A stretch of DNA of 46,501 bases from Candidatus Magasanikiibacteriota bacterium (GCA_016234265.1 JACRFW010000027.1:1-46501), one strand, 5' to 3'; counted from the first letter of the stretch, positions 6,175 through 46,330 are shown. Translations and numbers: made by a program. The notes: generated by a model from the sequence alone, not told the origin.

Positions 6175-6288
6175 TGTCATTCTGAACCCCTTTACGGGGT
6201 GAAGAATCTTCCGCTTATGCCATCGTGTGGTAATTGAGGCATAAAAGGAAGATCCTTCATCCCGAATACTCGGGATTCAGGATGACAG
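6175..6288. repeat. Palindromic repeat element, copy A: TGTCATTCTGA arm, CCCC-TTTAC-GGGG hairpin, GAAGAATCTTCC box, spacer, GGAAGATCCTTC box, TCCCGA-ATAC-TCGGGA hairpin, TCAGGATGACA arm
   Basis: Nested inverted repeat lying 1 nt past the grpE stop. The left 47 nt are identical to copy B. Confidence 0.8.
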
Positions 6289-6289
6289 T

Positions 6290-6817
6290 TTATTTCGCAA
6301 TTATCACCTTCGCCACCTTGATCACCCGGCCACCCATTATATATCCGCCATCCACTTCGCGTAAAATAAGCCCAGCTTCTTTCTCCGCTTTTTCTTCCCC
6401 CACCGTTTCATGAAATTTTGGGTCAAACTTTTCACCCAGCGCCTTAATCTCTTGTACATTGTGCGCTTTCAAAACCTCGCCAAACTGTTTCATAATGTGG
6501 CTGATGCCGTCTATCCAGTTGCGGAGCTGGCGCATGTCGCTCGTCACATCGTGGTGGTGGGCAAAGGCCTTTTTAAAATTGTCGTAGACGGGAATAAAAT
6601 CTTCCAGAATCTGTTGCTCACTCATCTGCGCCCACTCCGCGCGACGCGCGGCTGTTTCTTTTTGCAAATTTTGGTAATCAGCCACGGCCCGCTGCCAGCC
6701 GAGTTTGTATTCGGCGCATTGTTTTTCCAAATCGGTTGGCGGCTCGGCGCTCACCGCCTCGGAAGCGACTGCCTGTTCATCAGGTTTTATTAGTTGCTGG
6801 TTCGGTTCATCACTCAT
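6290..6817 (-). CDS. grpE: Nucleotide exchange factor GrpE
   Basis: GrpE-like length and C-terminal beta domain (GEKFDPKFHETVGEE...GGYIMGGRVIKVAKVII), sitting between hrcA and dnaK. Confidence 0.88.
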   Translation of the reverse strand: MSDEPNQQLIKPDEQAVASEAVSAEPPTDLEKQCAEYKLGWQRAVADYQNLQKETAARRAEWAQMSEQQILEDFIPVYDNFKKAFAHHHDVTSDMRQLRNWIDGISHIMKQFGEVLKAHNVQEIKALGEKFDPKFHETVGEEKAEKEAGLILREVDGGYIMGGRVIKVAKVIIAK

Positions 6818-6853
6818 AACGATTTAGCATTTATAATTTAACATTTAGCATTT

Positions 6854-7543
6854 TCAAATCAATTCTCTTACTTGCCTAAGCAAACTCCAATTATGTTTAT
6901 AGTCCATGCGTTGTGGGCCAAGTAATACAATGAGCGAGGCATCGTCCTCGCCAAAGCGCGAAGCGACCACCGAGAGCATTTCGCCAAAGGGGTGCTCGCG
7001 GCCTAAATATGGCCGGGGGTCGCCCCCGACGCGATCATAAAACCGCGGCAGGTATTCTTCACAGCGGTCAAAGACGCGCGACACGCTCGCGACCAGCTTC
7101 ATTTCGGCAAAGTCCGGCTTGCTGAAAAGATTGGAAAGGCCGGTGTAATACATTTTTTCGCTGGAGAATGCTACTATGACAGTTTCTTTGGAAAGATCAA
7201 CTAGCATCTTGGCCATATTTTTGCAACCGCTCTCATAGTCGCTCCCGCTTTTTTTCGCCGCGCCAAGCTTTTCGGTTTCACTGGCCTTGACTCCCAAAAC
7301 GGCGGGGTCAATTTTGCTCAAATAGAGTTCATACCCTTCGGTGGTCGGAATACGGCCGGCCGAGGTATGCGGGTGAGTGAGGTAACCGGCTTCCTCAAGA
7401 GCGCGCAGCTCGTTCCGCACAGTCGCTTCGCTCCAATCAAGCTCCCCTTCTTCCACCAAAAATCGCGACCCGATGGGCTCGGCGGTTTTGATGTAGCTAT
7501 CAATAACCATGGTTAAAAGCTCTTCTTGGCGTGGTTCTAGCAT
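6854..7543 (-). CDS. hrcA: Heat-inducible transcription repressor HrcA
   Basis: N-terminal winged helix EPIGSRFLVEEGELDWSEATVRNELRALEEAGYLTHPHTSAGRIPT. A CIRCE element lies immediately upstream. ATG at 7543 is preferred over the track's GTG at 7552. Confidence 0.88.
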   Translation of the reverse strand: MLEPRQEELLTMVIDSYIKTAEPIGSRFLVEEGELDWSEATVRNELRALEEAGYLTHPHTSAGRIPTTEGYELYLSKIDPAVLGVKASETEKLGAAKKSGSDYESGCKNMAKMLVDLSKETVIVAFSSEKMYYTGLSNLFSKPDFAEMKLVASVSRVFDRCEEYLPRFYDRVGGDPRPYLGREHPFGEMLSVVASRFGEDDASLIVLLGPQRMDYKHNWSLLRQVRELI

Positions 7544-7545
7544 AG

Positions 7546-7572
7546 TTATCACTCTTTACCTTTGAGTGATAA
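7546..7572. promoter_or_regulatory. CIRCE-like operator TTATCACTC-N9-GAGTGATAA
   Basis: Perfect 9-bp inverted repeat with a 9-nt spacer, matching 8 of 9 per arm to the CIRCE consensus TTAGCACTC-N9-GAGTGCTAA. It lies between the promoter -10 and the hrcA start. Confidence 0.75.
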
Positions 7573-7599
7573 TATACCGTTTCCCCTGTCCCCTGTCAA
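7571..7599 (-). promoter_or_regulatory. Sigma70-type promoter for the hrcA-grpE-dnaK operon (TTGACA, 17 nt, TATATT)
   Basis: Minus strand reads cccTTGACAggggacaggggaaacggTATATT, then CIRCE. Confidence 0.6.
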
Positions 7600-7624
7600 G
7601 GGGTCTGTTTTGTGTATAAAAAGG

Positions 7625-7724
7625 CTGTCATTCTGAACCCCTTTACGGGGTGAAGAATCTTCCGCTTATGCCCGTAGCGAATTTGGTAATCGGAAGATCC
7701 TTCGGTCGCGAGGGCTCTGGATGA
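7625..7724. repeat. Palindromic repeat element, copy B
   Basis: Same left half as copy A (47 nt identical) and the same GGAAGATCCTTC box. The right-hand hairpin differs and the right arm is TGGATGACA. Confidence 0.8.
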
Positions 7725-7735
7725 CAATTAAAACA

Positions 7736-7783
7736 ATTAAAAAACCCTGCACCAGTCCGCCAGCCGGCGGAGGTGCAGGGTTT
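7736..7783 (-). terminator. Intrinsic terminator after the SPFH gene: 12-bp stem AAACCCTGCACC...GGTGCAGGGTTT plus T-run
   Basis: Long perfect stem with an inner CCGCC/GGCGG pairing. The minus strand reads the stem followed by TTTTTAATTG. Confidence 0.6.
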
Positions 7784-7792
7784 AGTGGATTT

Positions 7793-8371
7793 TTACTCAG
7801 CTTTACTTATCTGCGAAATCTCGGTCAGAAGGACATTTTCCACGTAGATACCGCGGGCGTAGAAGATACGCTCCAGCTCGTTTTTGAGCTCCATTTCCAC
7901 CGTGTCGCGTTTAGAGCCAACAATGTCGGCGTAGTCAAACCGGCTAAAGACAATACGGATGCGGCTACGGATGGCGGGGCGGACGATTTTCGCGACGAAA
8001 TCTTCACCAATGGTCTGCCAAATGCTTGGCACCTGGTGGATATCCAAACGAAGCAAAATGGTGCCCTCAACGCCCAGGCGTTTGCTGTCTTGGGTCACGG
8101 CGGCAATGGGAATATCACCCAACGCGCGTTCGTGCTCAGGGTTGAACTGGCGAGAAATGCTGTATTCAAGTGTTTGAATGTTAAAAAGCTTGGCTTTCTG
8201 CCAGAACGGAATTTTGAGGTGCAACCCGGGAGTAAGCACTTTTTTGAGCACTCCGCGGCCCAAATCGTAGACACAGGCCACATATCCCGGCGGCACGTAG
8301 ATAAACAGGCCCTTCAAAACGTCATCAACGACAAACGAATACATTAACTTATCCAAAGATTCGGCAGACAT
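7793..8371 (-). CDS. SPFH/Band-7 (prohibitin/stomatin-like) domain protein
   Basis: Band-7 core pattern (VTQDSKRLGVEGTILLRLD...IVRPAIRSRIRIVFSRFDYADIVGSKRDTVEMELKNELE). No N-terminal TM helix is visible. Confidence 0.65.
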   Translation of the reverse strand: MSAESLDKLMYSFVVDDVLKGLFIYVPPGYVACVYDLGRGVLKKVLTPGLHLKIPFWQKAKLFNIQTLEYSISRQFNPEHERALGDIPIAAVTQDSKRLGVEGTILLRLDIHQVPSIWQTIGEDFVAKIVRPAIRSRIRIVFSRFDYADIVGSKRDTVEMELKNELERIFYARGIYVENVLLTEISQISKAE

Positions 8372-8396
8372 AGTGAAATGGTACGAAGTAAAACGT

Positions 8397-8469
8397 TGTC
8401 ATCCTGAACGAAGTGAAGGATCCCTTGCGTCTGTGTTTAAGGGATTCTTCGTTTCACTCAGAATGACAG
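8397..8469. repeat. Palindromic repeat element, copy E (TGTCATCCTGA ... TCAGAATGACA, about 73-nt imperfect palindrome)
   Basis: Arms plus an inner ACGAAGTGAAGGATCCCTT / AAGGGATTCTTCGTTTCAC inverted repeat, 8 nt past the yidC stop. Confidence 0.75.
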
Positions 8470-8477
8470 ACAAAGGT

Positions 8478-9188
8478 TTAATGATGGGTCGCGTCTTTCT
8501 TTTTATCAGGAAAAACGATGTGCCTAACGAGTGTTATGGTATCAGAGAATATCATGGTTGTCAAAATAAAGAGCGATTTTACCATGGGCAGGTACCAGAG
8601 CACAATGAATGTGAAAAGCGGGAAAAAAAGCAAATAATACATCTCCGAGCGCTCCCAGACCTTTCGCCCCCGGCTCTCCAAAAAGATGGAAACAAAGAGG
8701 TAGACCGAAGCGATGCCGGCCCAGAGCCAGTCGTGCACCCGGCCAATTTCAAAGCCGTAGAAATTAGTATTGATTTTCCCGGGAAAGTCAATGAAAGAAT
8801 AAAGAATCTTGATGACTTTATCGCCGGTGATTCCGCGAATGAAGACCTGATAAAGCAAAATCAAAACCAGAAGCTGAATAATGAGCGAGAGCACTTTGGC
8901 CCAGGGCGACATGTGGTATTTCTTCATTATCTGGCGAGCCACTTCTTTCTGCGCCACCCGGTCATTTTTATAAGACTGAAGCACTTTGCCGGCTTCATCC
9001 ACCACCTGCTGGTGGCGCACTTCATTATACTCGGAAATTATGGAGAGGGGCAGAAGCAGGATACGCAAAAATATGGTGAGCCAGATAACGGCCCAGCCCA
9101 GATTTTCGTTGGCGACATTGGAATAAATCCAGATCAGGGTGTTGAAAAGAGGCTGATACAGAACAGCAAACCAAAGGGTTGAGAGCAT
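8478..9188 (-). CDS. yidC: Membrane protein insertase YidC/Oxa1 family (short form)
   Basis: YQPLFNTLIWIY...LGWAVIWLTIFLRILLLPLS matches the first-helix motif of the YidC core, with several TM helices. The start was trimmed to MLSTLW. Confidence 0.8.
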   Translation of the reverse strand: MLSTLWFAVLYQPLFNTLIWIYSNVANENLGWAVIWLTIFLRILLLPLSIISEYNEVRHQQVVDEAGKVLQSYKNDRVAQKEVARQIMKKYHMSPWAKVLSLIIQLLVLILLYQVFIRGITGDKVIKILYSFIDFPGKINTNFYGFEIGRVHDWLWAGIASVYLFVSIFLESRGRKVWERSEMYYLLFFPLFTFIVLWYLPMVKSLFILTTMIFSDTITLVRHIVFPDKKKDATHH

Positions 9189-9251
9189 AGAAACTTCGCA
9201 AGTAATGCCGGAACTATAGCACAAAGCTGCCTGCGCCGCAACAGGTCTGCC

Positions 9252-9280: not shown

Positions 9281-9301
9281 CAACACATTTACTGATACTT
9301 T

Positions 9302-18832: not shown

Positions 18833-20359
18833 ATGCAATCGCCAACCAGAAAACAGAAGGAGGTTTTGGATTTTATAACTTCTTACATAAATAAGCACAG
18901 CATATCCCCCACCATTGAGGAAGTGGCGAGGCGCCTTAAACGCGCGATTGGCACAATACACGAACATATGGAAGAACTGGCGGAAAAGGGATTAATCAAA
19001 AAAAATAATTCTGCTCGTGGTGTTGAAGTTGTGCAAAATGATAGTTTAATCAAAATACCATTACTCGGAACCATAGCGGCGGGTCAGCCCATAGAAGCAA
19101 TTAAAGAAAGAGAGGCCATAGCCGTACCCCAAAGTAAACTGCCTAACTCCGGTAATTTCTATGCCCTGAAAGTAGTCGGTAATAGCATGACTGAAGAGAA
19201 TATCAACGATGGCGACGTTGTGCTAGTCAAACAGCAGAGCGCAGCTGATAACGGACAAAGGGTTGTGGCCTTAATTGATAATTACGAAACTACATTAAAA
19301 AAAATGTACAAAGAAAAAAGGCATATCAGGCTGCAACCGGCCAACAAAACAATGAGCCCCATAATTATTTCTAGACAAACTCCGTTCGCGATACAAGGCA
19401 TCGTGATTGATGTGATAAAAAATGATGAGAATGCCTTTTTAGAAGAACCAATTACATCAAGAAAAATCAAAAGAAATACTGCGCTGCCTTTAAACCAAAT
19501 TATTTTAAATGATGCAACTGAAGAGCTACGGAAGCTTCCGAATGAAAGTTGCGATGTCGTCATAATTGATCCACCATATAATATCGGCAAGGATTTTGGA
19601 AACAACATTGATAAACGAGAGCTGAACGAATACATCGCATGGTGCAAAGAATGGATCGGCGAAAGTATCCGAACAATGAAACCGACGGGGACAATGTTTA
19701 TTTACGGTTTCAGTGAAATTCTTGCTCATCTTTCTGTTGAAATCCCCATAAACAAACGCTGGCTTATCTGGCACTACACAAATAAAAATGTCGCCTCTCT
19801 TAATTTTTGGCAGAGAAGCCATGAAGCAATTATCTGTGCCTGGAAAGATAAGCCGGTTTTCAATAGAGACGAGGTCAGAGAGCCATACACGGAAGGATTT
19901 TTGAACGGGGCGGCTGGTAAAATAAGAAAAGGAACAGTTGGTAGATTTAGCAAGGGTGGATTAGAAACTATCTACAAGGCGCACGAGGGCGGCGCTTTGC
20001 CAAGAGATGTTATAAAAATACCAGCCCTGGCTGGAGGGGCTGGTATGAATGAAAGGTGGTTTATTTGTAAAACTTGCGGAGGAAATATTTTTGAGCCGAG
20101 AGAACTTAAAAAACACATCGACCACAAAATTATTAAACACCCGACACAAAAACCGCTGGAGCTATGTAGGAAATTGATCAGATCATCGGCGCCCAAGAAA
20201 GATGGGGTGGTTCTAGTGCCTTTTGTCGGCACAGGAGCCGAATGCGCGGCCGCAAAAGAATTAAATCAAAACTATATCGGTTTTGAGATTAATCCTGACT
20301 ATGTGAAGATCGCTGAAAAAACCATTTCTTCTGTAAAGGTGACACCAAAATTATTTTAG
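18833..20359 (+). CDS. Fusion protein: LexA-like repressor (winged HTH plus S24 self-cleaving peptidase) fused to a beta-class N6A/N4C DNA methyltransferase
   Basis: N-terminus: HTH, the Ala-Gly cleavage site GTIAAGQPIEA, the Ser in GNSM and the Lys in TLKKMY. C-terminus: DPPY (motif IV) in VVIIDPPYNIG, HPTQKP, and FxGxG (motif I) in PFVGTGAECAAAKEL. It is a single uninterrupted ORF. Confidence 0.85.
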   Translation: MQSPTRKQKEVLDFITSYINKHSISPTIEEVARRLKRAIGTIHEHMEELAEKGLIKKNNSARGVEVVQNDSLIKIPLLGTIAAGQPIEAIKEREAIAVPQSKLPNSGNFYALKVVGNSMTEENINDGDVVLVKQQSAADNGQRVVALIDNYETTLKKMYKEKRHIRLQPANKTMSPIIISRQTPFAIQGIVIDVIKNDENAFLEEPITSRKIKRNTALPLNQIILNDATEELRKLPNESCDVVIIDPPYNIGKDFGNNIDKRELNEYIAWCKEWIGESIRTMKPTGTMFIYGFSEILAHLSVEIPINKRWLIWHYTNKNVASLNFWQRSHEAIICAWKDKPVFNRDEVREPYTEGFLNGAAGKIRKGTVGRFSKGGLETIYKAHEGGALPRDVIKIPALAGGAGMNERWFICKTCGGNIFEPRELKKHIDHKIIKHPTQKPLELCRKLIRSSAPKKDGVVLVPFVGTGAECAAAKELNQNYIGFEINPDYVKIAEKTISSVKVTPKLF

Positions 20360-21046
20360 TCCGGCGTCAATCTCTTTTTTCTTGGCCTCAAAAATATGAG
20401 GAGTGAAAACAACAAAACCATTCGGAAGTCTCCTTAGCTCCTTATTATCTTGGAATCTCTTGTACGGCAATTTAAATTCCCCGTTCTTCTTCTTTGGATT
20501 TTTGAAGTAATCGCCGCTCGGAACCTCATACTTAATGTCCACAAACTCCCCTGGTAGCGGATTTTTTGATTTGGGTTTTTCCTGTCGCACCTCTCTGCCA
20601 AGAGATTTCTTCTTAACCTGATAATTTAAAATTTTACCCAGATATTTGACTTGAAAGTCAGCTCCTTTGTGATCAAGCTCACCAGACATCTCTACTGTTC
20701 CATCACCAAAAACGGATTCGGCAACGTACCCAGCGTGAATTTGCGTAATGATGCTCGCCCATGTTCTGTAAATTCTTGCAGGCAAACCTTTACCAAAACA
20801 TGTTTTGCACATCCCAGTTTTTTCTTGAAAGTTACTAATCTCTTTCTTATATTCTTGCAAATATTCCTCGTAAAACTTTTCGAAACTCAAAAATTTCTTC
20901 TTTTCCCAATATACCTTGTACAGCATATTGATAGCTTGAATCTCCTTGGGCAAGTCCATTTCCACAATTTTAATAGACCGATATTTGTCACGGTAGGCCT
21001 CCAGATCAACCGACTGTAAAAAATTCCCAAATTCACCTAATAACAT
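20351..21046 (-). CDS. Hypothetical protein, possibly a PD-(D/E)xK restriction endonuclease partner of the adjacent methyltransferase
   Basis: Convergent with the MTase, overlapping its 3' end by 9 nt. It carries a GD...x10...DHK arrangement (FGDGTVEMSGELDHK). No other homology is recognisable by eye. Confidence 0.5.
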   Translation of the reverse strand: MLLGEFGNFLQSVDLEAYRDKYRSIKIVEMDLPKEIQAINMLYKVYWEKKKFLSFEKFYEEYLQEYKKEISNFQEKTGMCKTCFGKGLPARIYRTWASIITQIHAGYVAESVFGDGTVEMSGELDHKGADFQVKYLGKILNYQVKKKSLGREVRQEKPKSKNPLPGEFVDIKYEVPSGDYFKNPKKKNGEFKLPYKRFQDNKELRRLPNGFVVFTPHIFEAKKKEIDAGLK

Positions 21047-21152: not shown

Positions 21153-21177
21153 GTGCTAATACGAACAAATTAAGACA

Positions 21178-21215
21178 GGGATCCTTCTCCCGACTGAGTC
21201 GGGATCAGGATGACA
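21178..21215. repeat. Palindromic repeat element, half-copy D (GGATCCTTC box, TCCCGAC-TGA-GTCGGGA hairpin, TCAGGATGACA arm)
   Basis: It is the exact reverse complement of the hairpin in copy C. The arm overlaps the lgt stop codon. Confidence 0.7.
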
Positions 21216-21996: not shown

Positions 21997-22038
21997 ATTA
22001 CATTTTCATTTCGAACGAAGTAAAGCGTCTCTCACGGT

Positions 22039-22137
22039 TGTCATTCCCCTGAAAAGGGGAATCCATGACTCTACTTTGTTCAACAATAGATTCCCGCTGG
22101 AGTTTACACTCACGAAAGTGGGTGCGGGAATGACAGT
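22039..22137. repeat. Palindromic repeat element, copy F (TGTCATTCCC arm ... GCGGGAATGACA)
   Basis: Matching outer arms with inner GGGG/CCCC hairpins. It lies 1 nt past the LOG-gene stop. Confidence 0.7.
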
Positions 22138-22138
22138 C

Positions 22139-23506
22139 CTATTTTAAATGCGACATAATATCGTCGGGACGATCAATAAATTTCAAGAATGACTCGTCAA
22201 TCTGACTGATGGTTTTGAATTTCACATTTAAATTATGAACAATATCAATCAGCGGTTGCCAGAACTCCCGCCCGTAAAGAATAATGGGCAGCGGTTCTAT
22301 TTTTTTCGTTTCTTGGAGCGTCAGCAATTCAAAAAGCTGATGGAGCGTGCCAAAACCGCCGGGGAAAAAAACAAAGGCCTCGGACGGGGCGGTGATAATG
22401 AGCTTGCGCACAAAGGGGAAAGAGAAGCTGATTGATCTGGTCAAGTAGTTATTCACCCGTTCATGTCCTTTAAAATGCACATTGATGCCGATGCTCTCCC
22501 CCCCATTCTCAAACGCGCCTTTGTTGGCGGCCTCCATAATGCCCGGGCCGCCGCCGGTAATAACCATGTGTTTGCTCTTAGCGAGTACCGCCCCCAGTTC
22601 GTTGGCGGCTTGATAATATGCTGAACCCGGGAGCACGCTCTTGGTGCCAAGCACCGTGACATCATGTTTAACTTTCGTCAAAAATTCAAATCCTTCCACC
22701 AATTCAGCCATGATGCGGAACACCCGCCAATCGGCGGCCCCCTCAAAATACAACGGACCGTTGGCCACTCCCCAGACATCAGAGTTATCGGTCGTATCTT
22801 TTATAAAGGAGAAAGCTTCTTCAGCCGTTTCCACCATGTGCCAGTCGGCAATATCTTTCTCGGACAACGAGTGCGCGAGCGCGATTGATTTTTGCTTTAA
22901 GAAATCCACAATCGGCTGCCAATATTCCCGACCGACCAGCACAATCGGAGTTTTTTCCATGAACCCCAGCTCCATGTAGTCCACCACTTCAAAAAACTCA
23001 TCCAGCGTGCCAAAGCCGCCGGGGAAAAAAACAAAAGCGTTGCCCGGGCTGGTCAGCATCACCTTGCGCGTGAAGAAATAATAGAAAGCGGTGGCTTTTT
23101 TGACGTAAGGGTTGATGCGCTGTTCAAAGGGCAGCTGAATGTTGAGGCCCACCGACTCGCCGCCGACTTCAAACGCGCCTTTGTTGGCGGCCTCCATAAT
23201 GCCCGGGCCGCCGCCGGTAATAGTGGTGAAGCCATGTTTGCCAAGTAACCGCCCGAGTTCCACGGCGACTTTGTAATATTTTTCATTGGGCGAAATGCGG
23301 GCCGAGCCGAGGACCACCACTTCTTTTTTTAGTTCGCTCAAAAATTGATAGCCTTCCACGATTTCGGTGACGATCCGAAAAATGCGCCAGGAATCGCGAT
23401 AGTTCACGGCGGCGCCAGTGGTATGAAAATGCGAGTCCGCAAGGGTTTTACCAGAAGAAACAGCCGAGGCGGGAGTGGCTGGTTGGCGCGTGGTTTTTTT
23501 GGGCAT
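22139..23506 (-). CDS. Tandem-duplicated LOG family protein (two TIGR00730-like cytokinin riboside 5'-monophosphate phosphoribohydrolase domains)
   Basis: The GGGPGIMEAANKGA motif occurs twice, with the PGGxGTxxE motif in each half. Confidence 0.85.
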   Translation of the reverse strand: MPKKTTRQPATPASAVSSGKTLADSHFHTTGAAVNYRDSWRIFRIVTEIVEGYQFLSELKKEVVVLGSARISPNEKYYKVAVELGRLLGKHGFTTITGGGPGIMEAANKGAFEVGGESVGLNIQLPFEQRINPYVKKATAFYYFFTRKVMLTSPGNAFVFFPGGFGTLDEFFEVVDYMELGFMEKTPIVLVGREYWQPIVDFLKQKSIALAHSLSEKDIADWHMVETAEEAFSFIKDTTDNSDVWGVANGPLYFEGAADWRVFRIMAELVEGFEFLTKVKHDVTVLGTKSVLPGSAYYQAANELGAVLAKSKHMVITGGGPGIMEAANKGAFENGGESIGINVHFKGHERVNNYLTRSISFSFPFVRKLIITAPSEAFVFFPGGFGTLHQLFELLTLQETKKIEPLPIILYGREFWQPLIDIVHNLNVKFKTISQIDESFLKFIDRPDDIMSHLK

Positions 23507-23524: not shown

Positions 23525-23609
23525 TGTCATTCCCAACTTGATTGGGAATCCATCATTCAACATTTCTAAAACTCTTGCTATGGATTCCCGCTTTTGCGGG
23601 AATGACACA
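23525..23609. repeat. Palindromic repeat element, copy G (nested: TGTCATTCCC/GGGAATGACA arms, GGGAATCCAT/ATGGATTCCC inner repeat, two small hairpins)
   Basis: 3 nt past the gatA stop. Confidence 0.75.
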
Positions 23610-31204: not shown

Positions 31205-31291
31205 AGGAATAATATTGAATACTAAATGCTAAACATCAAATACCGAATGGCACAATGCATTGTTCGGTATTTAACATTTGATGTTCGGTGT

Positions 31292-32590
31292 TTATGGCTT
31301 GTTCATCCAGCTTTCTTCCTGCCGCACCAGAAGAGTAGCTGCTTCCAGCGGCTCGGCCATCACCTCTTTGACAATTTTCTCCATGCGCGAACCTTGGGAG
31401 CCTTTCACCAAAATAATATCGCCCGTGTTTAATTGTTCCTGTAAAAATTTTCCGGCGGCAGCCGAGTTATCAAAACGGGCAATGCGGTGTTCCTCAAATC
31501 CGGCCTCGCGGGCCGCGGCGGCCGTAATTTTTGAGGCCTCCCCGACCGTAATGAGAAAATCAATGCCAAGCTCGGCTACTTTGAAACCAATTTCGCGGTG
31601 CGCGGTTTCGGTTTCCGGGCCCAGCTCCAGCATATCGCCCAAGACAGCGTAGCGCTCGGAGCCCGCGGGCACGGGAATGCTCGCGAGCGTATCCAGGGCC
31701 GCCTTGGCCGCGACCGGGCTGGAATTGTAGGTATCATCAATGAGGAGGGTATTTTTAATGCCAGAGAGCAGGCGCAGGTGCCCCGGCAAAGAAACAAACT
31801 GCCGCAAAGACTCCGCAGCTTCAACCAAATTTATACCAAAAATACTTCCGACCGCGATGGCGGCGAGAGCTGACGGAATAAGGCTCTCACTCAAAGCGCC
31901 GGGTAAAAATACCGGCACAATATTTCCTTTGTAGTGAACTTTAAAATTCAAGCCCGTTGGTCGGAAGCCCGAAGCGTCGCATAGCACGTTCACGTCAGTC
32001 GCCCGAATGGCCGCGCCTTCCTTCAATCCATAGGTTAAAACTTCCGCCTTGGTAGCGCCCGCCTCCTCCATCACCAACTCATTATCAAAATTCAAAACGG
32101 CAAAACCATCGCGCCGGAGATGCGAGATGATAATTCTTTTTTCCTGGGCGATTTTTTTAATGGTTTTAAAAAATTCAGTATGCGCGTGCGAAATGGCGGT
32201 GAGCACTCCCACGGTGCACGGCGCCATTTCGGTGAGATATTGAATGTCCCCGGGTCGGTCGGCGCCCATTTCTAACACGAGCGTTTTTGGATAGTTGGCA
32301 TCGCGAACAATGAGTAAACGCAAAGCTTGGGCAAAAACCATAAACCAACCGAGAATTGAATGGCCGGGAGTTTTGGCCACGCCAATAATGGTCAGCGGCA
32401 CGCCGACCTGGTTGTTATAATTTTTGGCGCTGGCGCGAACGTCAAAACGTGATTCCAACACCATACGAATAGCCTCTTTGGCCGAGGTCTTCCCCACCGA
32501 CCCGGTAATGCCAATCACATCAGGATGATATTTTCTAATAATGGCCGAAGAGAACTTTTTAAGAAAATAGTGCAATATAGAAATAAGCAT
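31292..32590 (-). CDS. murF: UDP-N-acetylmuramoyl-tripeptide--D-alanyl-D-alanine ligase
   Basis: Mur ligase P-loop GITGSVGKTSAKE and the MurF-type LIDDTYNSSP motif. Confidence 0.85.
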   Translation of the reverse strand: MLISILHYFLKKFSSAIIRKYHPDVIGITGSVGKTSAKEAIRMVLESRFDVRASAKNYNNQVGVPLTIIGVAKTPGHSILGWFMVFAQALRLLIVRDANYPKTLVLEMGADRPGDIQYLTEMAPCTVGVLTAISHAHTEFFKTIKKIAQEKRIIISHLRRDGFAVLNFDNELVMEEAGATKAEVLTYGLKEGAAIRATDVNVLCDASGFRPTGLNFKVHYKGNIVPVFLPGALSESLIPSALAAIAVGSIFGINLVEAAESLRQFVSLPGHLRLLSGIKNTLLIDDTYNSSPVAAKAALDTLASIPVPAGSERYAVLGDMLELGPETETAHREIGFKVAELGIDFLITVGEASKITAAAAREAGFEEHRIARFDNSAAAGKFLQEQLNTGDIILVKGSQGSRMEKIVKEVMAEPLEAATLLVRQEESWMNKP

Positions 32591-38738: not shown

Positions 38739-39971
38739 ATGCAAAACATCAAAAAACAATTCCCTATTTTTTCCCGCCCCGAGGCGGGATCCCGCTACGG
38801 CGGGACAAACCACCCTAACATGATCTATCTTGATAGCGCCGCGACGACGCAAACGCCGAGTGTGGTGATTGACGCGATGAACGATTACTACACAAAAACC
38901 CGCTCCAATGTTCATCGGGGAATTTATGATTTGAGCGAACAGGCTACTGCCGCCTACGAAGCCGCCCGCGCGAGCATCGCCAAGTTTCTCAACGCCGAGC
39001 GCGAAGAAATTATTTTTACTTCCGGCACCACACATGGGCTAAATCTGCTTGCCTATTCCCTGACCCCCAAACTCTCGCACCGCGACAATGTGGTGCTCAC
39101 GCGCCTGGAGCACCACGCCAACCTGGTGCCGTGGCAACAGATGGCCAAGCACTATGGCTTTACTATTCGCTACATTGAATTAACACCTGAAGACGAGCTT
39201 GATCTGGCCTCGGCTGAAAAAGTGATTGACGCCAACACCAAAATCGTGAGCTTTGCGCTGGTATCAAATGTGCTTGGCACGGTGGCTCAGGCGAAAAAAA
39301 TTAGTGAGTTCGCCCACGCCCGCCGGGCGCTCACAATTGTGGACGCCGCTCAAGCGGTGGCACACTTGCCAATTGACGTAGAAAATCTTGATTGTGACTT
39401 TCTCGTCTTTTCCGGCCACAAACTCTATGGCCCGACCGGCATTGGCGTGCTCTATAGTAAAAAAGCGCTTTTGGAAGAATCGCTGGAGCCATTTTTCTTT
39501 GGCGGAGATATGATCAAGAGTGTTTCGTATACCGATGCCACATGGGCGGAGTTGCCAGAGCGTTTTGAGGCTGGCACCCAAAATATCTCTGGCGTCATCG
39601 GCCTCGGCGCGGCTGTGGAGTGGCTCGCGAGCCTCGGCTGGGACAAAATTGTGGCGCATGAACGAGAGATGATGGCCTACGCTTTAGATAAATTAAAAAA
39701 TGAGGTCACGATAATTGGTCCAGCCATCGGCCACATTCACCGCGTTGGCGTCATTGCTTTTACAATTCCCAGCATTCATCCGCACGACATCGCCGAAATA
39801 TTGAACCAGGACAACATTTGTATCCGCGTCGGTTTTCACTGCGCCGAACCGCTCCATCGTCACCTCGGAGCCGGGCCAACCGCTCGGGCATCGTTTGGAG
39901 TGTACACGACCAAAGAAGATATTGATAAATTGGTGAAAGGAATTGAAAAAGTGAAAAAAATATTTGCCTAA
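38739..39971 (+). CDS. sufS: Cysteine desulfurase SufS (class II aminotransferase V)
   Basis: PLP-binding SGHKLYGPTGIGVLY and the catalytic-Cys loop GFHCAEP. Confidence 0.93.
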   Translation: MQNIKKQFPIFSRPEAGSRYGGTNHPNMIYLDSAATTQTPSVVIDAMNDYYTKTRSNVHRGIYDLSEQATAAYEAARASIAKFLNAEREEIIFTSGTTHGLNLLAYSLTPKLSHRDNVVLTRLEHHANLVPWQQMAKHYGFTIRYIELTPEDELDLASAEKVIDANTKIVSFALVSNVLGTVAQAKKISEFAHARRALTIVDAAQAVAHLPIDVENLDCDFLVFSGHKLYGPTGIGVLYSKKALLEESLEPFFFGGDMIKSVSYTDATWAELPERFEAGTQNISGVIGLGAAVEWLASLGWDKIVAHEREMMAYALDKLKNEVTIIGPAIGHIHRVGVIAFTIPSIHPHDIAEILNQDNICIRVGFHCAEPLHRHLGAGPTARASFGVYTTKEDIDKLVKGIEKVKKIFA

Positions 39972-43016: not shown

Positions 43017-43026
43017 ACAAGTAACC

Positions 43027-43055: not shown

Positions 43056-43063
43056 TTGTCAAT

Positions 43064-44377
43064 ATGACTGGCAATTCTTTAACCTTTCTTCGGGGGCCTG
43101 TAGTGTACGTCTGCCGGGACATGGAACGAGCCCTGGGCCTACCACTTTCCACACAGAATTACTTCATCATAACAAACTCCAGCGCTTTTGCGAAGAGTGT
43201 AGCCGCGAAGAACAGAAACATCCTCCTGATCGTTGAAAACGCGCCTCTGGATACGCGCGACCTCTTGGCTCACCCCAAAACAGCCGCGTGGCTGAATAGG
43301 TTGCCCAATCCAAAAATTTTGGTCTTTAAAAATACTACTCAAATAGAAAAACTGTGCCGAGATAAAGGGTGGCAGCTCCTGAACCCGCCCGCGGAACTGG
43401 CCAAACGAGTGGAGGAAAAGATTTCCCAGCTCACTTGGCTCGGCCCCCTCCAAAAATATTTACCGCCACATAAAGTTATGCTCTGCAAAGATCTGGAATG
43501 GTCCAAAAAAAAACTTGCCCGGCACCGAACCGGAGGTTCCGGTGCTGGGTATATCGTGCAATTCAACCATGCGCACACGGGGCTTGGCACCATACTCATC
43601 AATTCGGCTCAATCGCTGGTTGAACTGAAGAAAAAATTTCCTAAGCGCAGTGTCCGCGTCACGGATTTTGTCAGCGGGCCGGCATTGACCAACAACAACG
43701 TCGTGTGGGGAAAACACGTGCTGATTGGAAACATCAATTACCAAATAACTGGATTAGCACCATTCACTAAGAGCCCATTTACTACCGTTGGTAATGATTG
43801 GGCACTGCCGAAGCACCTTATGCAGAGTAAACAAATTAGGCGGTTTAAGCAGATAGCTACCAACGTCGGGAAAAAGCTAGCCAAAGACGGCTGGCGCGGA
43901 CTATTTGGCATTGATACTATTTTGGATGAAAAAACCGACAAGCTGTACCTCATTGAGATCAATGCGCGACAGCCAGCATCAACGACGTTTGAATCACAAT
44001 TACAAGAAAACAAAAAAACAATAAAGCAAAAAAATAACGCAACGACGTTTGAAGCGCATTTGGCGGCATTACTGGGCCTTCCTTACAAAAAACAAAAACT
44101 AATTGCCATAACAGACGGAGCGCAGATTATACAGAGAATACCGAATACCGAACAACAAATATTAAATACCGAATACCGAATACCGAATCACAAACGACTA
44201 GCAAAAAGAATTAACGGATTAAAAGATTGCAAGATTATTGAATACGAAAATACCACCCCGGGGAGTGACTGGCTACGCATTCAGAGTAAAGCGGGTATTA
44301 TGGCCGGGCATAACAAGTTTAATAAGTTGGGAAAAAATATTCAAAATGACACCTACTATGTTATCACCAAAAGCTGA
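43064..44377 (+). CDS. ATP-grasp domain protein (D-Ala-D-Ala ligase-like C-terminal fold) with a repeat-containing C-terminal extension
   Basis: Gly-rich TGGSGAGYIV and GLFGIDTILDEKTDKLYLIEINARQPAST (compare the Ddl region RVDF..edg..YlnEvNT.PG.T). The C-terminus contains a TTFE duplication and a heptanucleotide SSR. Confidence 0.75.
   Translation: MTGNSLTFLRGPVVYVCRDMERALGLPLSTQNYFIITNSSAFAKSVAAKNRNILLIVENAPLDTRDLLAHPKTAAWLNRLPNPKILVFKNTTQIEKLCRDKGWQLLNPPAELAKRVEEKISQLTWLGPLQKYLPPHKVMLCKDLEWSKKKLARHRTGGSGAGYIVQFNHAHTGLGTILINSAQSLVELKKKFPKRSVRVTDFVSGPALTNNNVVWGKHVLIGNINYQITGLAPFTKSPFTTVGNDWALPKHLMQSKQIRRFKQIATNVGKKLAKDGWRGLFGIDTILDEKTDKLYLIEINARQPASTTFESQLQENKKTIKQKNNATTFEAHLAALLGLPYKKQKLIAITDGAQIIQRIPNTEQQILNTEYRIPNHKRLAKRINGLKDCKIIEYENTTPGSDWLRIQSKAGIMAGHNKFNKLGKNIQNDTYYVITKS
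44138..44186 (+). repeat. Heptanucleotide tandem repeat (ATACCGA)2, 14 nt degenerate, then (ATACCGA)3, inside the ATP-grasp coding region
   Basis: Read directly from the sequence. It encodes ...RIPNTEQQILNTEYRIPNH. Confidence 0.85.
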
Positions 44378-45164
44378 ACAAGTTATCCACGATTATCTCA
44401 ACCTTCCTTTCAAGGGAATCCCGGGCGCGCGAGCCCCCTATTTTAACAATGCCCGGCAAAGAGAGCGCGGGCAGCTGCGTGTACTCGTGGGCAAAGGCAC
44501 CCCCCAAGAAATTGTGGAAGAAGCAAAAATCATTTCCATCCAATACCACGCCGGCCTGTTTGATAAACAGGGTGACTGTTGCCTGCACAATGCCCATACC
44601 GGCAAACCGGTGACCCCCGACGACCTGCGCCGGTTCCTCATTGACCATAGTTTAGGCATTGAATGCTCAGGATTTGTCACCCAGGTGCTCCGAGCTCATT
44701 ACCGGGAAACGAAGGGCTTTGACTTTGTGAAAAAAATTACCGCCACTCCTCGGGCCGAAATTGTCCGTCGCCTGATTGCCTGGCTTCGGCCGGTGGAAAA
44801 TATCAATGTTGCCACCTACGCGAATGATGAGAACAGCACGCTCGTTCGAGGCTATGAGGAAATCAAGCCGGGCGACCTTGTTATCATGCTCAAGACGGGG
44901 CCACGCCAGGAACACGACCATATTCTGCTGATAACAGACGTACAGGGGAAAACGATTCACTACGCCCAGGCCCGGGCCTGGAGCCGCGAGGGAAAATACG
45001 ACCACGGCGTGGCGCGCGGCACCATTTCTATTACCCACCCCACCGAGAGCCTCTTGAAACAGGATTGGCAAGAATTGGGATACAATGGGGATGGTAATGA
45101 GACCTACATTGAAGCGAAACAGGCCAACACCCTGTGCATCAAACGATTACGCCTCAACACATGA
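44346..45164 (+). CDS. Cytoplasmic NlpC/P60-family cysteine peptidase/amidase
   Basis: Nucleophile motif ECSGFV, then PGDLVIML...EHDHILLITDV...TIHYAQA (His/His). There is no signal peptide. Its start overlaps the ATP-grasp 3' end. Confidence 0.75.
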   Translation: MTPTMLSPKAEQVIHDYLNLPFKGIPGARAPYFNNARQRERGQLRVLVGKGTPQEIVEEAKIISIQYHAGLFDKQGDCCLHNAHTGKPVTPDDLRRFLIDHSLGIECSGFVTQVLRAHYRETKGFDFVKKITATPRAEIVRRLIAWLRPVENINVATYANDENSTLVRGYEEIKPGDLVIMLKTGPRQEHDHILLITDVQGKTIHYAQARAWSREGKYDHGVARGTISITHPTESLLKQDWQELGYNGDGNETYIEAKQANTLCIKRLRLNT

Positions 45165-46273
45165 ACTTCCAACCGCTCCAACAATCACTCGTCTACTTGA
45201 TCGGATCAACAATCGCCGCTTTTTTGTGGGCACCGCTCCTCACGAAGTTTTTATATAAATATAACATCACCCGCCGGGGTGAGTTTGACCCGACGTTGCA
45301 GGGAGAGCGCCGGCATAAAGCCGGCACCCCCACCATGGGCGGGCTTTTGGTTATCGTGACGGTCACTGTCATTACCGTACTTTTCAATTGGCAACGTCGC
45401 TACACCTATGTACCGATTGGCGCTATGGGCATTGCGGCGCTCTTGGGGGCGGCGGACGATCTCTTGAATATCTTCGGCACCAAACGCCGCTTGCGCAATG
45501 TGCGCCACACCATCATCCTCATGAAAGTGCACAAACGTTGGTATATGAAACTGTGGTACGCGCTTACCATTCCCTGGATAGGGTTTCGTGATTTGGTAAG
45601 TATGTTTGGGTCTAAACAAGGGCGGGGCATTCAGGTACATGAAAAATTACTACTCCAATTTGGAGCGGGAGCGGTGACGGCCTGGTGGGTGTACGTGAAG
45701 CTCGGCGCCAGCTGGCAGACGATCAACTTTCCTTTTGACGGCAGTCTATACTTGGGGTGGTTTATCATTCCGGTGATTATTTTCTTTGTGATGTTTACGG
45801 CCAACGCGGTGAATGTGGCCGATGGCATGGACGGCCTGGCGGGCGGGTCGCTCATCGCGGCTTTCCTTGGCCTCACGGTCGTGAGCTGGGTGGAGGGACG
45901 CACGGCCTTTGCCCCACTGAACGCGACGGTGGTCGGGGCGCTCCTCGCCTACACCTACTTTAACGTCAAACCGGCCCGCTTCCAGATGGGGGACGTTGGC
46001 TCCCTTGGTCTCGGCACGCTGCTCGCTATCAACGCTATCGCTCTCAACAAAACATTGCTTATCCCCTTCTTCGGTTTTATTTTTTATGTGGAAATATTTT
46101 CCGTTATCCTGCAAGTTTTGAGCCGCCGCTTGTTTGGCCGACGGCTGTTCAAAATGTCCCCGCTGCACCATCACTTTGAAATTATGGGCTGGAACGAAGA
46201 AAAAGTCGTGATGCGTTTCTGGATTATTCAGGCTTTTATGGTGATGGTCGGCGTGTGGCTGGCGCTAAATTAA
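45161..46273 (+). CDS. mraY: Phospho-N-acetylmuramoyl-pentapeptide transferase
   Basis: NAVNVADGMDGLAGG and a multi-TM topology. Its start overlaps the preceding stop (ATGA). Confidence 0.93.
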   Translation: MNFQPLQQSLVYLIGSTIAAFLWAPLLTKFLYKYNITRRGEFDPTLQGERRHKAGTPTMGGLLVIVTVTVITVLFNWQRRYTYVPIGAMGIAALLGAADDLLNIFGTKRRLRNVRHTIILMKVHKRWYMKLWYALTIPWIGFRDLVSMFGSKQGRGIQVHEKLLLQFGAGAVTAWWVYVKLGASWQTINFPFDGSLYLGWFIIPVIIFFVMFTANAVNVADGMDGLAGGSLIAAFLGLTVVSWVEGRTAFAPLNATVVGALLAYTYFNVKPARFQMGDVGSLGLGTLLAINAIALNKTLLIPFFGFIFYVEIFSVILQVLSRRLFGRRLFKMSPLHHHFEIMGWNEEKVVMRFWIIQAFMVMVGVWLALN

Positions 46274-46275
46274 AC

Positions 46276-46330
46276 TGTCATTCAGATCCCGACTCAGTCG
46301 GGAGAAGAATCTTCCGCTTATGCACTCGTA
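46276..46330. repeat. Palindromic repeat element, copy C, left half only (TGTCATTCAGA arm, TCCCGAC-TCA-GTCGGGA hairpin, GAAGAATCTTCCGCTTATGC box), followed directly by a GIY-YIG gene
   Basis: It shares the 20-nt GAAGAATCTTCCGCTTATGC with copies A and B. Its hairpin is the reverse complement of the one in copy D. Confidence 0.75.

Follow-up and report, generated by a model that had tools for sequence, protein, structure and literature searches.

Inverted hairpin repeats in a Candidatus Magasanikbacteria genome segment are very probably the ends and derivatives of units carrying an Ssn-family nuclease gene

Nested palindromes of similar build recur between the genes of a Candidatus Magasanikbacteria DNA segment of 46,501 nt (JACRFW010000027.1, analyzed over its whole length and called the window here), and several of them begin just behind a stop codon. 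This raises the question of what the repeats are, how they spread and why they lie where they do. The seven repeat loci of the first-pass annotation were found to be real, and their coordinates were refined. In the 46.5-kb window TGTCATYC occurs 12 times against 2.25 expected from shuffles (maximum 6; 0 of 100 shuffles reached 12), and all 12 occurrences are inverted termini of these seven loci. A search of the whole window with profile HMMs of the arms gave no additional copies, and no Rfam family matched the repeats. The 12 arms are all intergenic except that of element D, which overlaps the last lgt codons. With about 1.6% of the window taken up by the elements, their earlier description as a major structural component of the genome was roughly right. 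The arms resemble the Ssn-related motif (SRM); Ssn proteins are single-domain GIY-YIG nucleases that bind SRM/NTS hairpins as ssDNA and cleave site-specifically, on ssDNA but not on dsDNA or RNA, at a distance of a few nucleotides on the 5' side (Chenal et al., Nat Commun 2025, PMC11893778). Two hairpin classes of arm can be distinguished, class I, which is longer and has a tandem G·A internal loop, and class II. The features are as follows.

A, 6175-6287 (113 nt), no strand assigned: two inverted class-I SRM arms (6175-6221 and 6238-6287) with a 16-nt spacer
B, 7626-7726 (101 nt), no strand assigned: left arm the same as that of A over 47 nt, right arm degenerate
C, 8397-8468 (72 nt), no strand assigned: short class-I MITE, TGTCATCCTGAACGAAGTGAAGGATCCC ... 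GGGATTCTTCGTTTCACTCAGAATGACA
D, 21176-21215, minus strand: solo class-I SRM right arm, TGTCATCCTGATCCCGACTCAGTCGGGAGAAGGATCCCTG
22004-22031, plus strand: possible relic of an older class-I arm, TTTCATTTCGAACGAAGTAAAGCGTCTC, 20/28 matches to the left arm of C
E, 22039-22135 (97 nt), no strand assigned: class II, left arm TGTCATTCCCCTGAAAAGGGGAATCCAT fits the published SRM pattern
F, 23525-23607 (83 nt), no strand assigned: class II, right arm TGTCATTCCCGCAAAAGCGGGAATCCAT (minus strand) fits the published SRM pattern
22039-22066 (plus strand, left arm of E) and 23580-23607 (minus strand, right arm of F): arms matching the SRM pattern
G left arm, 46276-46319, plus strand: SRM arm TGTCATTCAGATCCCGACTCAGTCGGGAGAAGAATCTTCCGCTT, 2 nt past the mraY stop
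ssn, 5' part (60 codons), 46320-46501, plus strand: single-domain GIY-YIG nuclease, MHSYYVYIMASASEVIYIGVTNDIQRRISEHKQKLVEGFTQQYN…

Each arm in the window (12/12) consists of TGTC, a hairpin (ATYC…GRAT) and a final C, and the published form of SRM/NTS (dRS3-type) repeats is (T)GTC-ATYC-[stem-loop]-GRAT-C (PMC11893778). The T or C at position 7 covaries perfectly with the A or G in GRATC (8 T-A, 4 C-G, 0 discordant; Fisher P = 0.002), and this covariation is also kept in about 40 arms from related loci. The stems vary and yet remain paired (CCCC/GGGG, TCCCGAC/GTCGGGA, CCCAA/TTGGG, CCCGC/GCGGG). Folded alone, 8 of the 12 arms give TGTC plus a hairpin, and A folds as ssDNA into a four-way structure (-30 kcal/mol, z = -7.2), so the nested-palindrome shape noticed earlier is real; the two conserved boxes named with it, GAAGAATCTTCC and GGAAGATCCTTC, are likewise present in the window. 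In the mutagenesis of the N. meningitidis system, the TGTC on the 5' side and the C on the 3' side of the palindrome were the positions most critical for cleavage and binding (PMC11893778). The published degenerate SRM pattern, HGTCWYN(0-2)YYVSBRHN(0-5)WNVSBRGN(0-2)RNCYNB, is matched by 2/12 arms against 0.16 matches per shuffled window, and eight of the ten arms that do not match it are of class I, with a hairpin longer than the pattern allows.

The link to a nuclease gene comes from G. It had been taken for a half-copy, which was wrong: G is the 5' end of a full-length unit of about 355-381 bp that starts at 46276 and carries a GIY-YIG gene (ATG at 46320), within which the contig ends. The product of the ORF from 46320 in the window matches PF01541 (GIY-YIG) at E = 1e-10, and its full-length relatives (86-95 aa) showed no second domain. 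The complete gene, ssn, codes for 95 aa, is the only gene in the unit and has its start codon within the conserved box of the left arm. The fragment in the window is annotated as partial at NCBI (MBI5729048.1). An identical ssn fragment stands at the end of another contig of this MAG, so the MAG carries at least two ssn copies. In a tblastn search of the N. gonorrhoeae chromosome the SsnA orthologue (94 aa) was matched at 44% identity over 93% of the query (E = 4e-14). Pairwise alignment with this orthologue gave E = 2e-23, and the window fragment alone reached 44% identity to it (pairwise E = 2e-15), where the published criterion for homology in the Ssn family (cd10448, SsnA-like) is E < 1e-10 to Neisseria SsnA. 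At E <= 1e-10 the family comprises 3,422 cluster representatives. Counterparts of the residues mutated in the published work (Nm Y6, Y17 and E64, the two Tyr of GIY/YIG and the metal-binding Glu) are kept as Y7 (= Nm Y6), Y17 and E64; Y17, R27 and H31 are invariant, and E64 belongs to an REK motif present in all full-length sequences, which for G lies past the window end. The gonococcal gene is itself flanked by canonical NTS repeats. Homology to Neisseria SsnA thus shows the window gene to be a member of the Ssn nuclease family, and cleavage of ssDNA is predicted for its product, provided that the gene, truncated in the window, is intact.

The SRM-ssn-SRM architecture was found in five independent loci. 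Units with ssn between terminal inverted repeats (TIRs) are present in the related loci L003/L010, L020, L112 and L114 and in a Planktothrix plasmid, and the motif stands on both sides of ssn in L003/L010, L020, L112, L114 and L111, while G shows the left side only. A full unit lies after mraY, the same locus as that of G, in L003/L010, and the arms of the Planktothrix plasmid are 27/28 identical to the right arm of C. Every full-length copy encodes ssn alone, with its start codon inside the conserved arm. The earlier observation that A and B share 47 identical nucleotides was borne out (6175-6221 = 7626-7672). Both have the left arm and start-codon box of ssn that are common to G and L003 (CCGCTTATGCC in A) and carry remnants of only 6 and 18 codons, and because they retain this box they look like MITE-like derivatives that arose by internal deletion. 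C, E and F look like shorter two-arm derivatives, the right arm of E having a 26-nt loop insertion, and D is a solo arm; its stem-loop matches the arm of G and is 92% complementary to 46276-46311. A, B and G have no consistent orientation relative to host genes. The stretch at 22004-22031, between E and the lgt start, is only tentatively assigned as a relic of an older class-I arm and was not picked up by nhmmer; a similar stretch (8368-8396) adjoins C.

The comparison of orthologous junctions that the first-pass annotation had called for was carried out, and the sites of A, B, C, E and F are empty in related Magasanikbacteria with the same gene order. In L119 the sites of A, B and C are all empty, the C site being a 9-nt spacer, and in L116 those of B and C are empty and a different MITE occupies the A site. 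E and F are both missing from L031, L032 and L034, where LOG and lgt overlap or are 2 nt apart, and the gatA/LOG spacer of L031 is 5 nt long. In addition, the ssn units of L112 and L114 occupy different junctions of one prfA-sua5-ksgA block. Presence or absence is therefore lineage-specific, and these empty sites and differing junctions indicate that the elements are probably lineage-specific insertions at conserved gene junctions, with the qualification that nucleotide identity between the compared genomes is only 65-83%. Insertion is formally indistinguishable from exact loss, and neither a precise target site nor a duplication could be defined. No direct repeats that would represent a target-site duplication flank any copy examined. 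Copies also occur in frame in relatives: in L010 a Mur ligase contains a 98-nt element that is translated with it, and in L005 one arm is translated as part of CysS. The MITE/REP-like character proposed earlier is thus supported by the paired inverted hairpins, the start-codon box in A and B and the empty sites in syntenic relatives.

Taken together, the repeats are very probably inverted SRM pairs that end ssn units in Candidatus Magasanikbacteria (CPR), plus derivatives of such units. We propose that Ssn may act on hairpins in DNA that becomes single-stranded during replication or uptake, and that this action might drive or assist the spread of the units, by analogy with REP/RAYT or IS200/IS605 systems. 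Copies would then survive mainly in harmless places: the short non-coding stretch behind a stop codon, or a site at which the TGA of an arm restores the stop. The GTCAT ends are outermost in the SRM pairs of the window, which predicts that one strand is cut at one end and the other strand at the other end, a difference from IS200/IS605; the NTS in one examined Neisseria locus point the opposite way. Ssn is known as a nuclease only and is not known to have strand-transfer or ligation activity. Mobility has been raised as a hypothesis (PMC11893778).

It is possible, although on balance doubtful, that the repeats are mainly a domesticated host system, in which SRMs bracket genes (grpE-hrcA, Band7, lgt, LOG) and Ssn cuts incoming homologous ssDNA and so modulates natural transformation and recombination. 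The elements of the window do lie at consecutive junctions and bracket single genes (7 of about 46 junctions are occupied, with three adjacent pairs, P ≈ 0.04), and a dependence on DNA uptake has been suggested for CPR bacteria. Such a role has precedents, as NTS-gene-NTS arrangements modulate natural transformation and recombination in experiments with N. meningitidis and symbionts are enriched among SRM-rich genomes (PMC11893778). However, no competence genes are present in the window, the in-frame insertions in the Mur ligase gene and cysS of relatives resemble parasitic spread, and the sites are not conserved among relatives, which argues against a locus-specific host role. A host system and mobile ssn units are not mutually exclusive.

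The position of the elements relative to stop codons had been described as six copies starting 1-8 nt after a stop, with strong targeting of gene 3' ends. The gaps after grpE (2 nt), LOG (3 nt), gatA (5 nt) and mraY (2 nt) agree with this, as does D, whose TGA provides the lgt stop (21205-21207; …P M S S *), but the gap after yidC is 9 nt, and B, an exception, lies 66 nt from the Band7 stop. As a pattern, the closeness to gene ends holds: 6/13 elements lie within 5 nt of a stop against 1.8 expected (P = 0.005), only 1/13 lies within 5 nt of a start, and three host ORFs end at the TGA of an arm. On the start side A is 31 nt upstream of hsp20, C 25 nt before Band7, E 42 nt before lgt and F 18 nt before LOG. 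If integration as such were directed to stop codons or to the 3' ends of genes, for example by recognition of TAA/TAG with 1-5 further nt, or of ssDNA exposed at points where translation or transcription stops, this would account for the excess on the stop side and for its absence on the start side. The same grpE stop is followed by two MITE subfamilies, 2 and 5 nt past it, in two genomes, and the junctions before TGTCAT read TAA-AC, TAA-AC, TAG-GAC, TAG-GT, TAG-C and TAA-ATAG. We nevertheless consider targeting unlikely. The junctions have no common target sequence beyond the stop codon itself, B and an element of L010 lie 66 and 24 nt from a stop, the Mur ligase and CysS copies sit inside coding sequences, and in several relatives elements precede start codons by 4-9 nt (4 and 8 nt in L033, 5 nt before cysS in L005). 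Moreover, since ancestral spacers are only 1-19 nt long or the genes overlap, an insertion that is tolerated can hardly fall anywhere but next to a stop. AT-rich leaders before start codons plausibly need freedom from structure. Purifying selection, given a very compact genome, accounts for the stop proximity at least as well, and the two causes are inseparable in these data.

The remaining readings fare worse. Co-option of the hairpins as transcription terminators or mRNA 3' stabilizers, suggested by the first-pass annotation, would fit strong hairpins directly after stop codons and elements that must be transcribed within operon mRNAs, but it is not supported and appears quite improbable. 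In a terminator scan no element coincided with a terminator-like site and none was followed by a T-tract; E and F lie inside the gatA-LOG-lgt block, which is tightly packed or overlapping in relatives, so that ending transcription there would do harm; Band7 has a genuine intrinsic terminator hairpin of its own, and B lies downstream, between this hairpin and the hrcA promoter/CIRCE operator; and the elements are missing at orthologous sites of relatives. The elements are not terminators. That they are ordinary DDE-transposon MITEs, or REP/BIME repeats moved by a RAYT or an IS200/IS605 Y1 transposase encoded elsewhere, with the GIY-YIG gene as a passenger, is extremely improbable despite the TIRs, hairpins and small size that give them the general look of such repeats, given the lack of target-site duplications, of any transposase, RAYT or HUH/Y1 domain in the ORFs of the window and of any gene but ssn in the full-length copies, and the recurrence of the arm/ssn pairing in Cyanobacteria and Neisseria.

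Compared with known systems, the ssn units share a GIY-YIG catalytic fold within a selfish unit with homing endonucleases of the I-TevI type; the latter differ in having a separate DNA-binding domain, cutting dsDNA at one cognate allele, spreading by gene conversion and lacking hairpin TIRs. Rickettsia palindromic elements (RPE) are, by description, also palindromic repeats of about 100 nt and can sit in frame in coding genes, whereas the window copies are intergenic; to our knowledge, no nuclease goes with RPEs. The Correia/NEMIS elements of Neisseria, classical bacterial MITEs, are likewise intergenic and built of inverted repeats, measure about 100-150 bp and are transcribed together with the genes next to them. 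They are characterized by 26-nt TIRs, a TA duplication and an IHF site, while the window elements have no duplication, other termini and a dedicated GIY-YIG gene. Like classical MITEs, A and B share termini with an autonomous element and lack its gene, but there is no target-site duplication and the parent codes for a nuclease for which DNA transposition is not known. IS200/IS605 elements (TnpA, "peel-and-paste") are similar in their subterminal hairpins recognized as ssDNA, absence of target-site duplications and very small size; in them both hairpins are on the same strand and the target is a fixed tetra- or pentanucleotide, whereas the window arms are inverted and no fixed target is visible. 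REPIN-RAYT systems likewise have short intergenic hairpins, often in inverted pairs, tied to a repeat-flanked single- or low-copy nuclease gene, and within-genome homogenization, as for the arms of A and B (47/47 identical), but here the nuclease is of the GIY-YIG type and not an HUH/Y1 tyrosine transposase, and there is no conserved tetranucleotide of the GTAG type.

The closest likeness is to the Ssn/SRM system, in the single-domain GIY-YIG protein of about 95 aa with 44% identity to the SsnA orthologue and conserved catalytic residues, the (Y)GTC-ATTC…GAAT-C frame, the gene flanked on both sides and the many, almost all intergenic copies. The window repeats are a member of this recently described kind with variant hairpins. 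They differ in the host, CPR/Patescibacteria, a group absent from the text of PMC11893778, in that most arms belong to the longer class with the tandem G·A internal loop, outside the published pattern, and in the defined inverted pairs, GTCAT outward, that form a unit of about 355-381 bp and its deletion derivatives. The published description does not use the term MITE, demonstrate mobility or report stop-codon adjacency (PMC11893778). The comparative evidence presented here that Ssn/SRM units are mobile is a useful addition to it.

The window holds 12 occurrences of the motif TGTCATYC, where dinucleotide shuffles give an expectation of 2.25 (shuffle maximum 6; 12 reached in 0 of 100), and all 12 matches are the inverted termini of the seven loci proposed in the first-pass annotation, confirming that the nested repeat family is real. 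The refined limits of the elements are given below with the neighbouring ORFs, which were named by Pfam annotation and are on the minus strand apart from that of G.

Palindromic elements of the window and their gene neighbours
Element A, 6175-6287: downstream of grpE, upstream of hsp20 (minus strand genes)
Element B, 7626-7726: downstream of Band7, upstream of hrcA (minus strand genes)
Element C, 8397-8468: downstream of yidC, upstream of Band7 (minus strand genes)
Element D, one arm only, 21176-21215: downstream of lgt, upstream of tRNA-Ser (minus strand genes)
Element E, 22039-22135: downstream of LOG, upstream of lgt (minus strand genes)
Element F, 23525-23607: downstream of gatA, upstream of LOG (minus strand genes)
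Element G, 46276 to window end: downstream of mraY (plus strand)

Profile HMMs built from the arms recovered the same 12 arms and no others in the window, and nhmmer searches with the arm profiles detected no decayed copies there, so the candidate relics beside C and E are tentative. Repeat comparison within the window bore out the 47 identical nucleotides noted for A and B; this identity of the left arms (47/47) points to copying or gene conversion in the recent past. Between arms D and G, complementarity is 92%. As single-stranded DNA (ssDNA), 8 of the 12 arms fold alone as TGTC plus a hairpin (z -2.6 to -5.2), and the entire element A folds as a four-way nested palindrome of -30 kcal/mol (z = -7.2), so the earlier description of their shape was accurate. 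A second intergenic repeat class comprises AT-rich heptamer tandem arrays at 6822-6853 (ATTTAGC x4.6, between grpE and hrcA), 31205-31292 (similar heptamers in palindromic arrangement) and 44136-44188 (GAATACC x7.6). Similar arrays are found in spacers of two relatives (L116 and L009), and those of the window recall the cyanobacterial STRR heptamer repeats.

The Ssn/SRM pair was described only in 2025 (Chenal et al., PMC11893778). N. meningitidis SsnA, a single-domain GIY-YIG protein of 94 aa (cd10448), binds the hairpin repeat NTS (CGTCATTCCCGCGMAVGCGGGAATCYRG), the longer form accounting for about half of dRS3 copies, as ssDNA only and cuts a few nt 5' of it; cutting depends most on the bases immediately 5' of the palindrome, and binding on the C immediately 3' of it (PMC11893778). 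In many phyla, SsnA homologues have Ssn-related motifs (SRMs) on their flanks. The authors likened NTS-ssnA-NTS to an insertion sequence, without demonstrating mobility, and left open both its mobile nature and its role outside Neisseria (PMC11893778).

In a tblastn search of PLSDB, the CPR protein matched two N. gonorrhoeae chromosomes, mis-filed as plasmids, at a 94-aa ORF with canonical NTS repeats on its flanks (44% identical, E = 4e-14; pairwise 2e-23). Residues Y7 (the counterpart of Y6), Y17, R27, H31, and E64 are conserved in CPR Ssn. The arms are oriented SRM hairpins: all 12 read TGTC-ATYC…GRAT-C, and T/C in ATYC covaries perfectly with A/G in GRAT (8 T-A, 4 C-G, 0 discordant; Fisher P = 0.002), a rule that some 40 arms of related loci follow as well. 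Apart from one chance hit, only E-left and F-right fit the published degenerate SRM pattern, for which shuffled windows give 0.16 matches each. Eight other arms, belonging to A, B, C, D, and G, form a second hairpin class (class I), GTCATYC-T-GA-(stem-loop)-GA-A-GRATC, whose tandem G·A internal loop makes the hairpin longer than that pattern allows. Because this class is missed, published SRM counts may be underestimates. It is not confined to CPR bacteria, since the arms flanking an ssn gene (56% identical) on a Planktothrix agardhii plasmid are 27/28 identical to C-right. The Ssn family has 3,422 representatives of 50%-identity clusters at E ≤ 1e-10. No solved Ssn structure was found in the PDB, where the sole match was marginal (UPF0213 BH0048), and no Ssn model in NCBIfam; the literature search found nothing relevant tying GIY-YIG to MITE or REP/RAYT, or on YhbQ/COG2827/UPF0213 or the arm sequences. 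Judged by sequence, the window repeats are of the Ssn/SRM kind, and their host would be a new phylum-level group for the system, with variant hairpins and a clean TIR-like unit.

On the Planktothrix plasmid (NZ_LR882964.1, 18271-19716), the ssn homologue has an MmeI-type R-M gene on one side and DISARM drmA on the other. Around it are two-arm elements of class I, together with partial arm ends repeated in tandem (TGTCATTCTGAGT… x3, 23-nt period; …CATTCAGGATGACA x3, 32-nt period); these look like scars of repeated end processing.

Copy G is not the half-copy that it had been taken for. After its left arm, an ATG at 46320, within the conserved box CCGCTT-ATG-C, opens an ORF (MHSYYVYIMASASEVIYIGVTNDIQRRISEHKQK…) that matches Pfam GIY-YIG and runs off the window. 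An exact 20-mer from this start-codon box retrieved copies in two other MAGs; two matches inside coding sequences (L006 and L007) were discarded as chance. One related locus (L003, also L010) holds a complete 370-nt unit at the same place, after mraY, in the order TGTCATTC, hairpin, GAAGAATCTTCCGCTT, ATG, 95-codon ORF, TAA TAG, GGAAGATCCTTC, hairpin, CTGGATAACA. Its layout is SRM→ssn←SRM, and the GTCAT ends point outwards. Other full units, of 355-381 nt, are located at a carA/carB junction (L020), at a prfA/sua5 junction (L112), and before ksgA (L114). The short copies derive from this unit, and A and B look like internal-deletion derivatives, as their left arm, start codon, and a few further codons are followed directly by the right-arm box. 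The window is one contig (46,501 bp) of a Candidatus Magasanikbacteria MAG with locus tags HY983_…; another contig of this MAG, 32.8 kb long, ends in an identical ssn fragment at the same residue. The two contig ends indicate that the source genome has at least two ssn copies and that the assembler broke there. GrpE is recorded only on a 1.4-kb contig, itself broken inside repeat A. Such repeats break MAG assemblies, the window contig being one that ends in a repeat, and they create spurious or extended ORFs (peptides ending in …LSS before the stop, or of VILSEAK type).

Two related loci have unusual arrangements. In L009 (1930-2320, a CAZHFX01 contig), an A-type left arm and the ssn start-codon box are followed by a yggU/DUF167-like gene without ssn, and then by a GGAAGATCC box; a host gene could have been captured between element halves, or two elements could have rearranged. 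In the Magasanikbacteria RIFOXYD2_FULL_39_9 population, L028 and L020 share the carA flank and an identical ssn gene, and their right arm and downstream context differ, which reflects either recombination between elements or chimeric assembly at the repeat. Within the window, mraY (45800-45826) also shares a perfect 27-nt inverted match, GCCATCGGCCACATTCACCGCGTTGGC, with a sufS-like gene (39723-39749). Its limits are sharp, and each gene reads through it in frame (as AIGHIHRVG, and as the MraY motif ANAVNVADG). Chance is very unlikely at such length in 46 kb, and gene conversion, an assembly artefact, or coincidence are possible sources.

Copies come and go at gene junctions, as seen in three independent comparisons of conserved junctions. 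Three metagenome contigs carry LOG orthologues (53-68% identical) with tightly packed neighbours and no element: gatA-LOG-lgt with a 5-nt spacer and then an overlap (L031), these three genes again, spaced by 20 nt and then overlapping (L034), and LOG-lgt 2 nt apart (L032). The corresponding spacers of the window are 106 nt (holding F) and 142 nt (holding E). In the prfA-sua5-…-ksgA block common to L112 and L114, the ssn unit of L112 precisely fills the gap from the prfA stop to the sua5 start (CAATAG GT, unit, TT ATG), while this site is empty in L114 (GAATAG T ATG), which has its own unit before ksgA. The third comparison concerns the yidC-Band7-hrcA-grpE-hsp20 block. L119, whose Band7 has 99.5% protein and 83% DNA identity to that of the window, is empty at the A, B, and C sites, with a yidC-Band7 spacer of 9 nt, an uninterrupted terminator-to-promoter stretch, and a grpE-hsp20 spacer of 19 nt. 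In L116, the B and C sites are empty, and a different 79-nt MITE lies 5 nt after the grpE stop; in the window, A lies 2 nt after the corresponding stop. Since the compared genomes are only 65-83% identical in DNA, these comparisons show lineage-specific gain (or loss) and not recent events.

Elements are also found inside genes. In L010, a complete 98-nt two-arm element (4697-4794) lies in frame inside a Mur ligase gene ("IVILHPPEADEESLSQSANGEGSFGRLRRPQDDS"), and it resembles in this respect, like a single arm in L005, the Rickettsia palindromic elements. The host ORF (3987-5513, MAG CAZHFX01) codes for a MurC/Mpl-like ligase with a 33-34-residue insert, IVILHPPEADEE…RRPQDDS. MurC PDB chains match residues 5-230 or so, several with a second separate stretch, and MurE chains match only 269-484, leaving the element-coded residues 237-270 uncovered. 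The L005 arm (6260-6300) is translated inside cysS (ORF 5235-6626) as TVILTPPSRGKNPS.

Measured from the stop codon, the terminus lies 2 nt away at grpE, 9 at yidC, 3 at LOG, 5 at gatA, and 2 at mraY. As had been noted, an arm supplies the lgt stop: the ORF enters arm D and ends at its TGA (…CCG ATG TCA TCC TGA). In three cases additional to the pooled counts below, the host ORF ends at the TGA of TGTCATC(C/T)TGA, giving …(M/L)SS before the stop (lgt itself, a DUF4015 gene in L114, and an ORF in L009). Element B is the exception: the distance to its stop is 66 nt, and it is bordered by the intrinsic terminator of Band7 and the promoter of hrcA (TTGACA-17-TATATT, 11/12 matches, then a CIRCE operator). 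The bias was tested on window and related-locus elements between co-directional genes with both neighbours called (n = 13), the expectation being that each is placed uniformly within its own spacer (Poisson-binomial). The stop-side gap was ≤5 nt in 6/13 against 1.8 expected (P = 0.005), and the start-side gap in 1/13 (P = 0.86); a looser element set gave 8/15 on the stop side (P = 0.0025). The pattern noted earlier is therefore real and not confined to the window, yet it has exceptions in B, the in-frame copies, and elements of L033, L005, and L010 that precede a start codon by 4-9 nt; what had been suggested as targeting of gene 3' ends is an unexplained, statistically supported bias. Ancestral spacers measure no more than 1-19 nt, or the genes overlap, and start codons are preceded by AT-rich leaders, so purifying selection could yield the bias without targeting. 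Stop-codon adjacency offers a concrete, testable handle on insertion versus filtering by selection.

On the minus strand at 7541-7604, hrcA is preceded by a textbook arrangement of a sigma-70-like promoter and then a CIRCE-type operator (TTATCACTC-N9-GAGTGATAA), both conserved in L119 and L116, and B is inserted just upstream of the -35 box, which is undisturbed. The LOG gene (22139-23506, minus strand, 455 aa) has an internal tandem duplication with two LOG/SLOG-type domains; its DNA repeats are 660 nt apart (22322-22562 and 22982-23222, 74-85% identical), and the fused form is conserved in relatives L030-L034. In the ORF at 18833-20359, an N6/N4 DNA methyltransferase is joined to a LexA DNA-binding domain and an S24 peptidase, and a TaqI-family restriction endonuclease gene (20351-21046) converges on this ORF with a 9-nt overlap. 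The pair would form an R-M system in which a self-cleaving, LexA-like repressor module is part of the methylase.

By analogy with Neisseria biochemistry, Ssn would bind every arm that becomes single-stranded, whether at a replication fork or in the course of DNA uptake, and would nick about 3 nt outside the terminus on the strand reading 5'-TGTCAT, so that the two unit ends would be nicked on opposite strands. The step from nick to new copy could be strand displacement from the flanking 3'-OH, template switching, or arm recombination. The mosaic arms (A-left = B-left; D ≈ G) and the tandem partial-arm arrays of Planktothrix suggest free recombination among arms. We tentatively propose, as a possibility somewhat short of even, that the ~360-bp SRM-ssn-SRM unit is an autonomous mobile element, among the smallest known, mobilised via ssDNA by a 95-aa GIY-YIG nuclease and spawning MITE-like derivatives that settle right after stop codons, can supply stops, and occasionally insert in frame. 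This enzyme class is not known to drive bacterial transposition.

A host-level role, in which Ssn would restrict incoming SRM-bearing ssDNA as shown in Neisseria, would fit the gene-bracketing layout with its three adjacent occupied junctions (P ≈ 0.04). The MITE/REP-like reading of the first-pass annotation was right in spirit, as there is a unit with deletion derivatives and varying presence, but these are not DDE-type MITEs or REP/RAYT repeats: no target-site duplication was found at the 12 window termini and about 10 related-locus termini, no transposase in the window, and every full unit encodes ssn only. A target motif was likewise sought at these termini and not found. The proposed use as terminators does not hold, because no element is followed by a T-tract or called by the promoter/terminator scan, and E and F lie within an operon-like block. 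A known RNA family is dismissed, as Rfam scans at the gathering threshold (whole window) and with a permissive E-value (6100-8600) gave just two tRNAs and some meaningless miRNA-like hairpin matches.

The main value of the window and its relatives is comparative evidence for the still-open idea of Ssn/SRM units as mobile elements, bearing on both mobility and function outside Neisseria: a compact unit with defined inverted termini, deletion derivatives in which the ssn start codon survives, conserved junctions that are empty in some genomes and filled independently in others, several ssn copies (at least two) in one genome, and in-frame copies within genes of relatives. They also extend the system to ultra-small, episymbiotic CPR bacteria. 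If the unit is indeed an autonomous mobile element, the widespread dRS3/NTS/SRM repeats known from Neisseria, Wolbachia, Rickettsia, cyanobacteria, and CPR bacteria would be traces left by a new ssDNA transposon class. At the one Neisseria ssnA locus examined, the flanking NTS have their GTCAT ends facing the gene, whereas those of the CPR unit are outermost, so the CPR arrangement is a distinct geometry.
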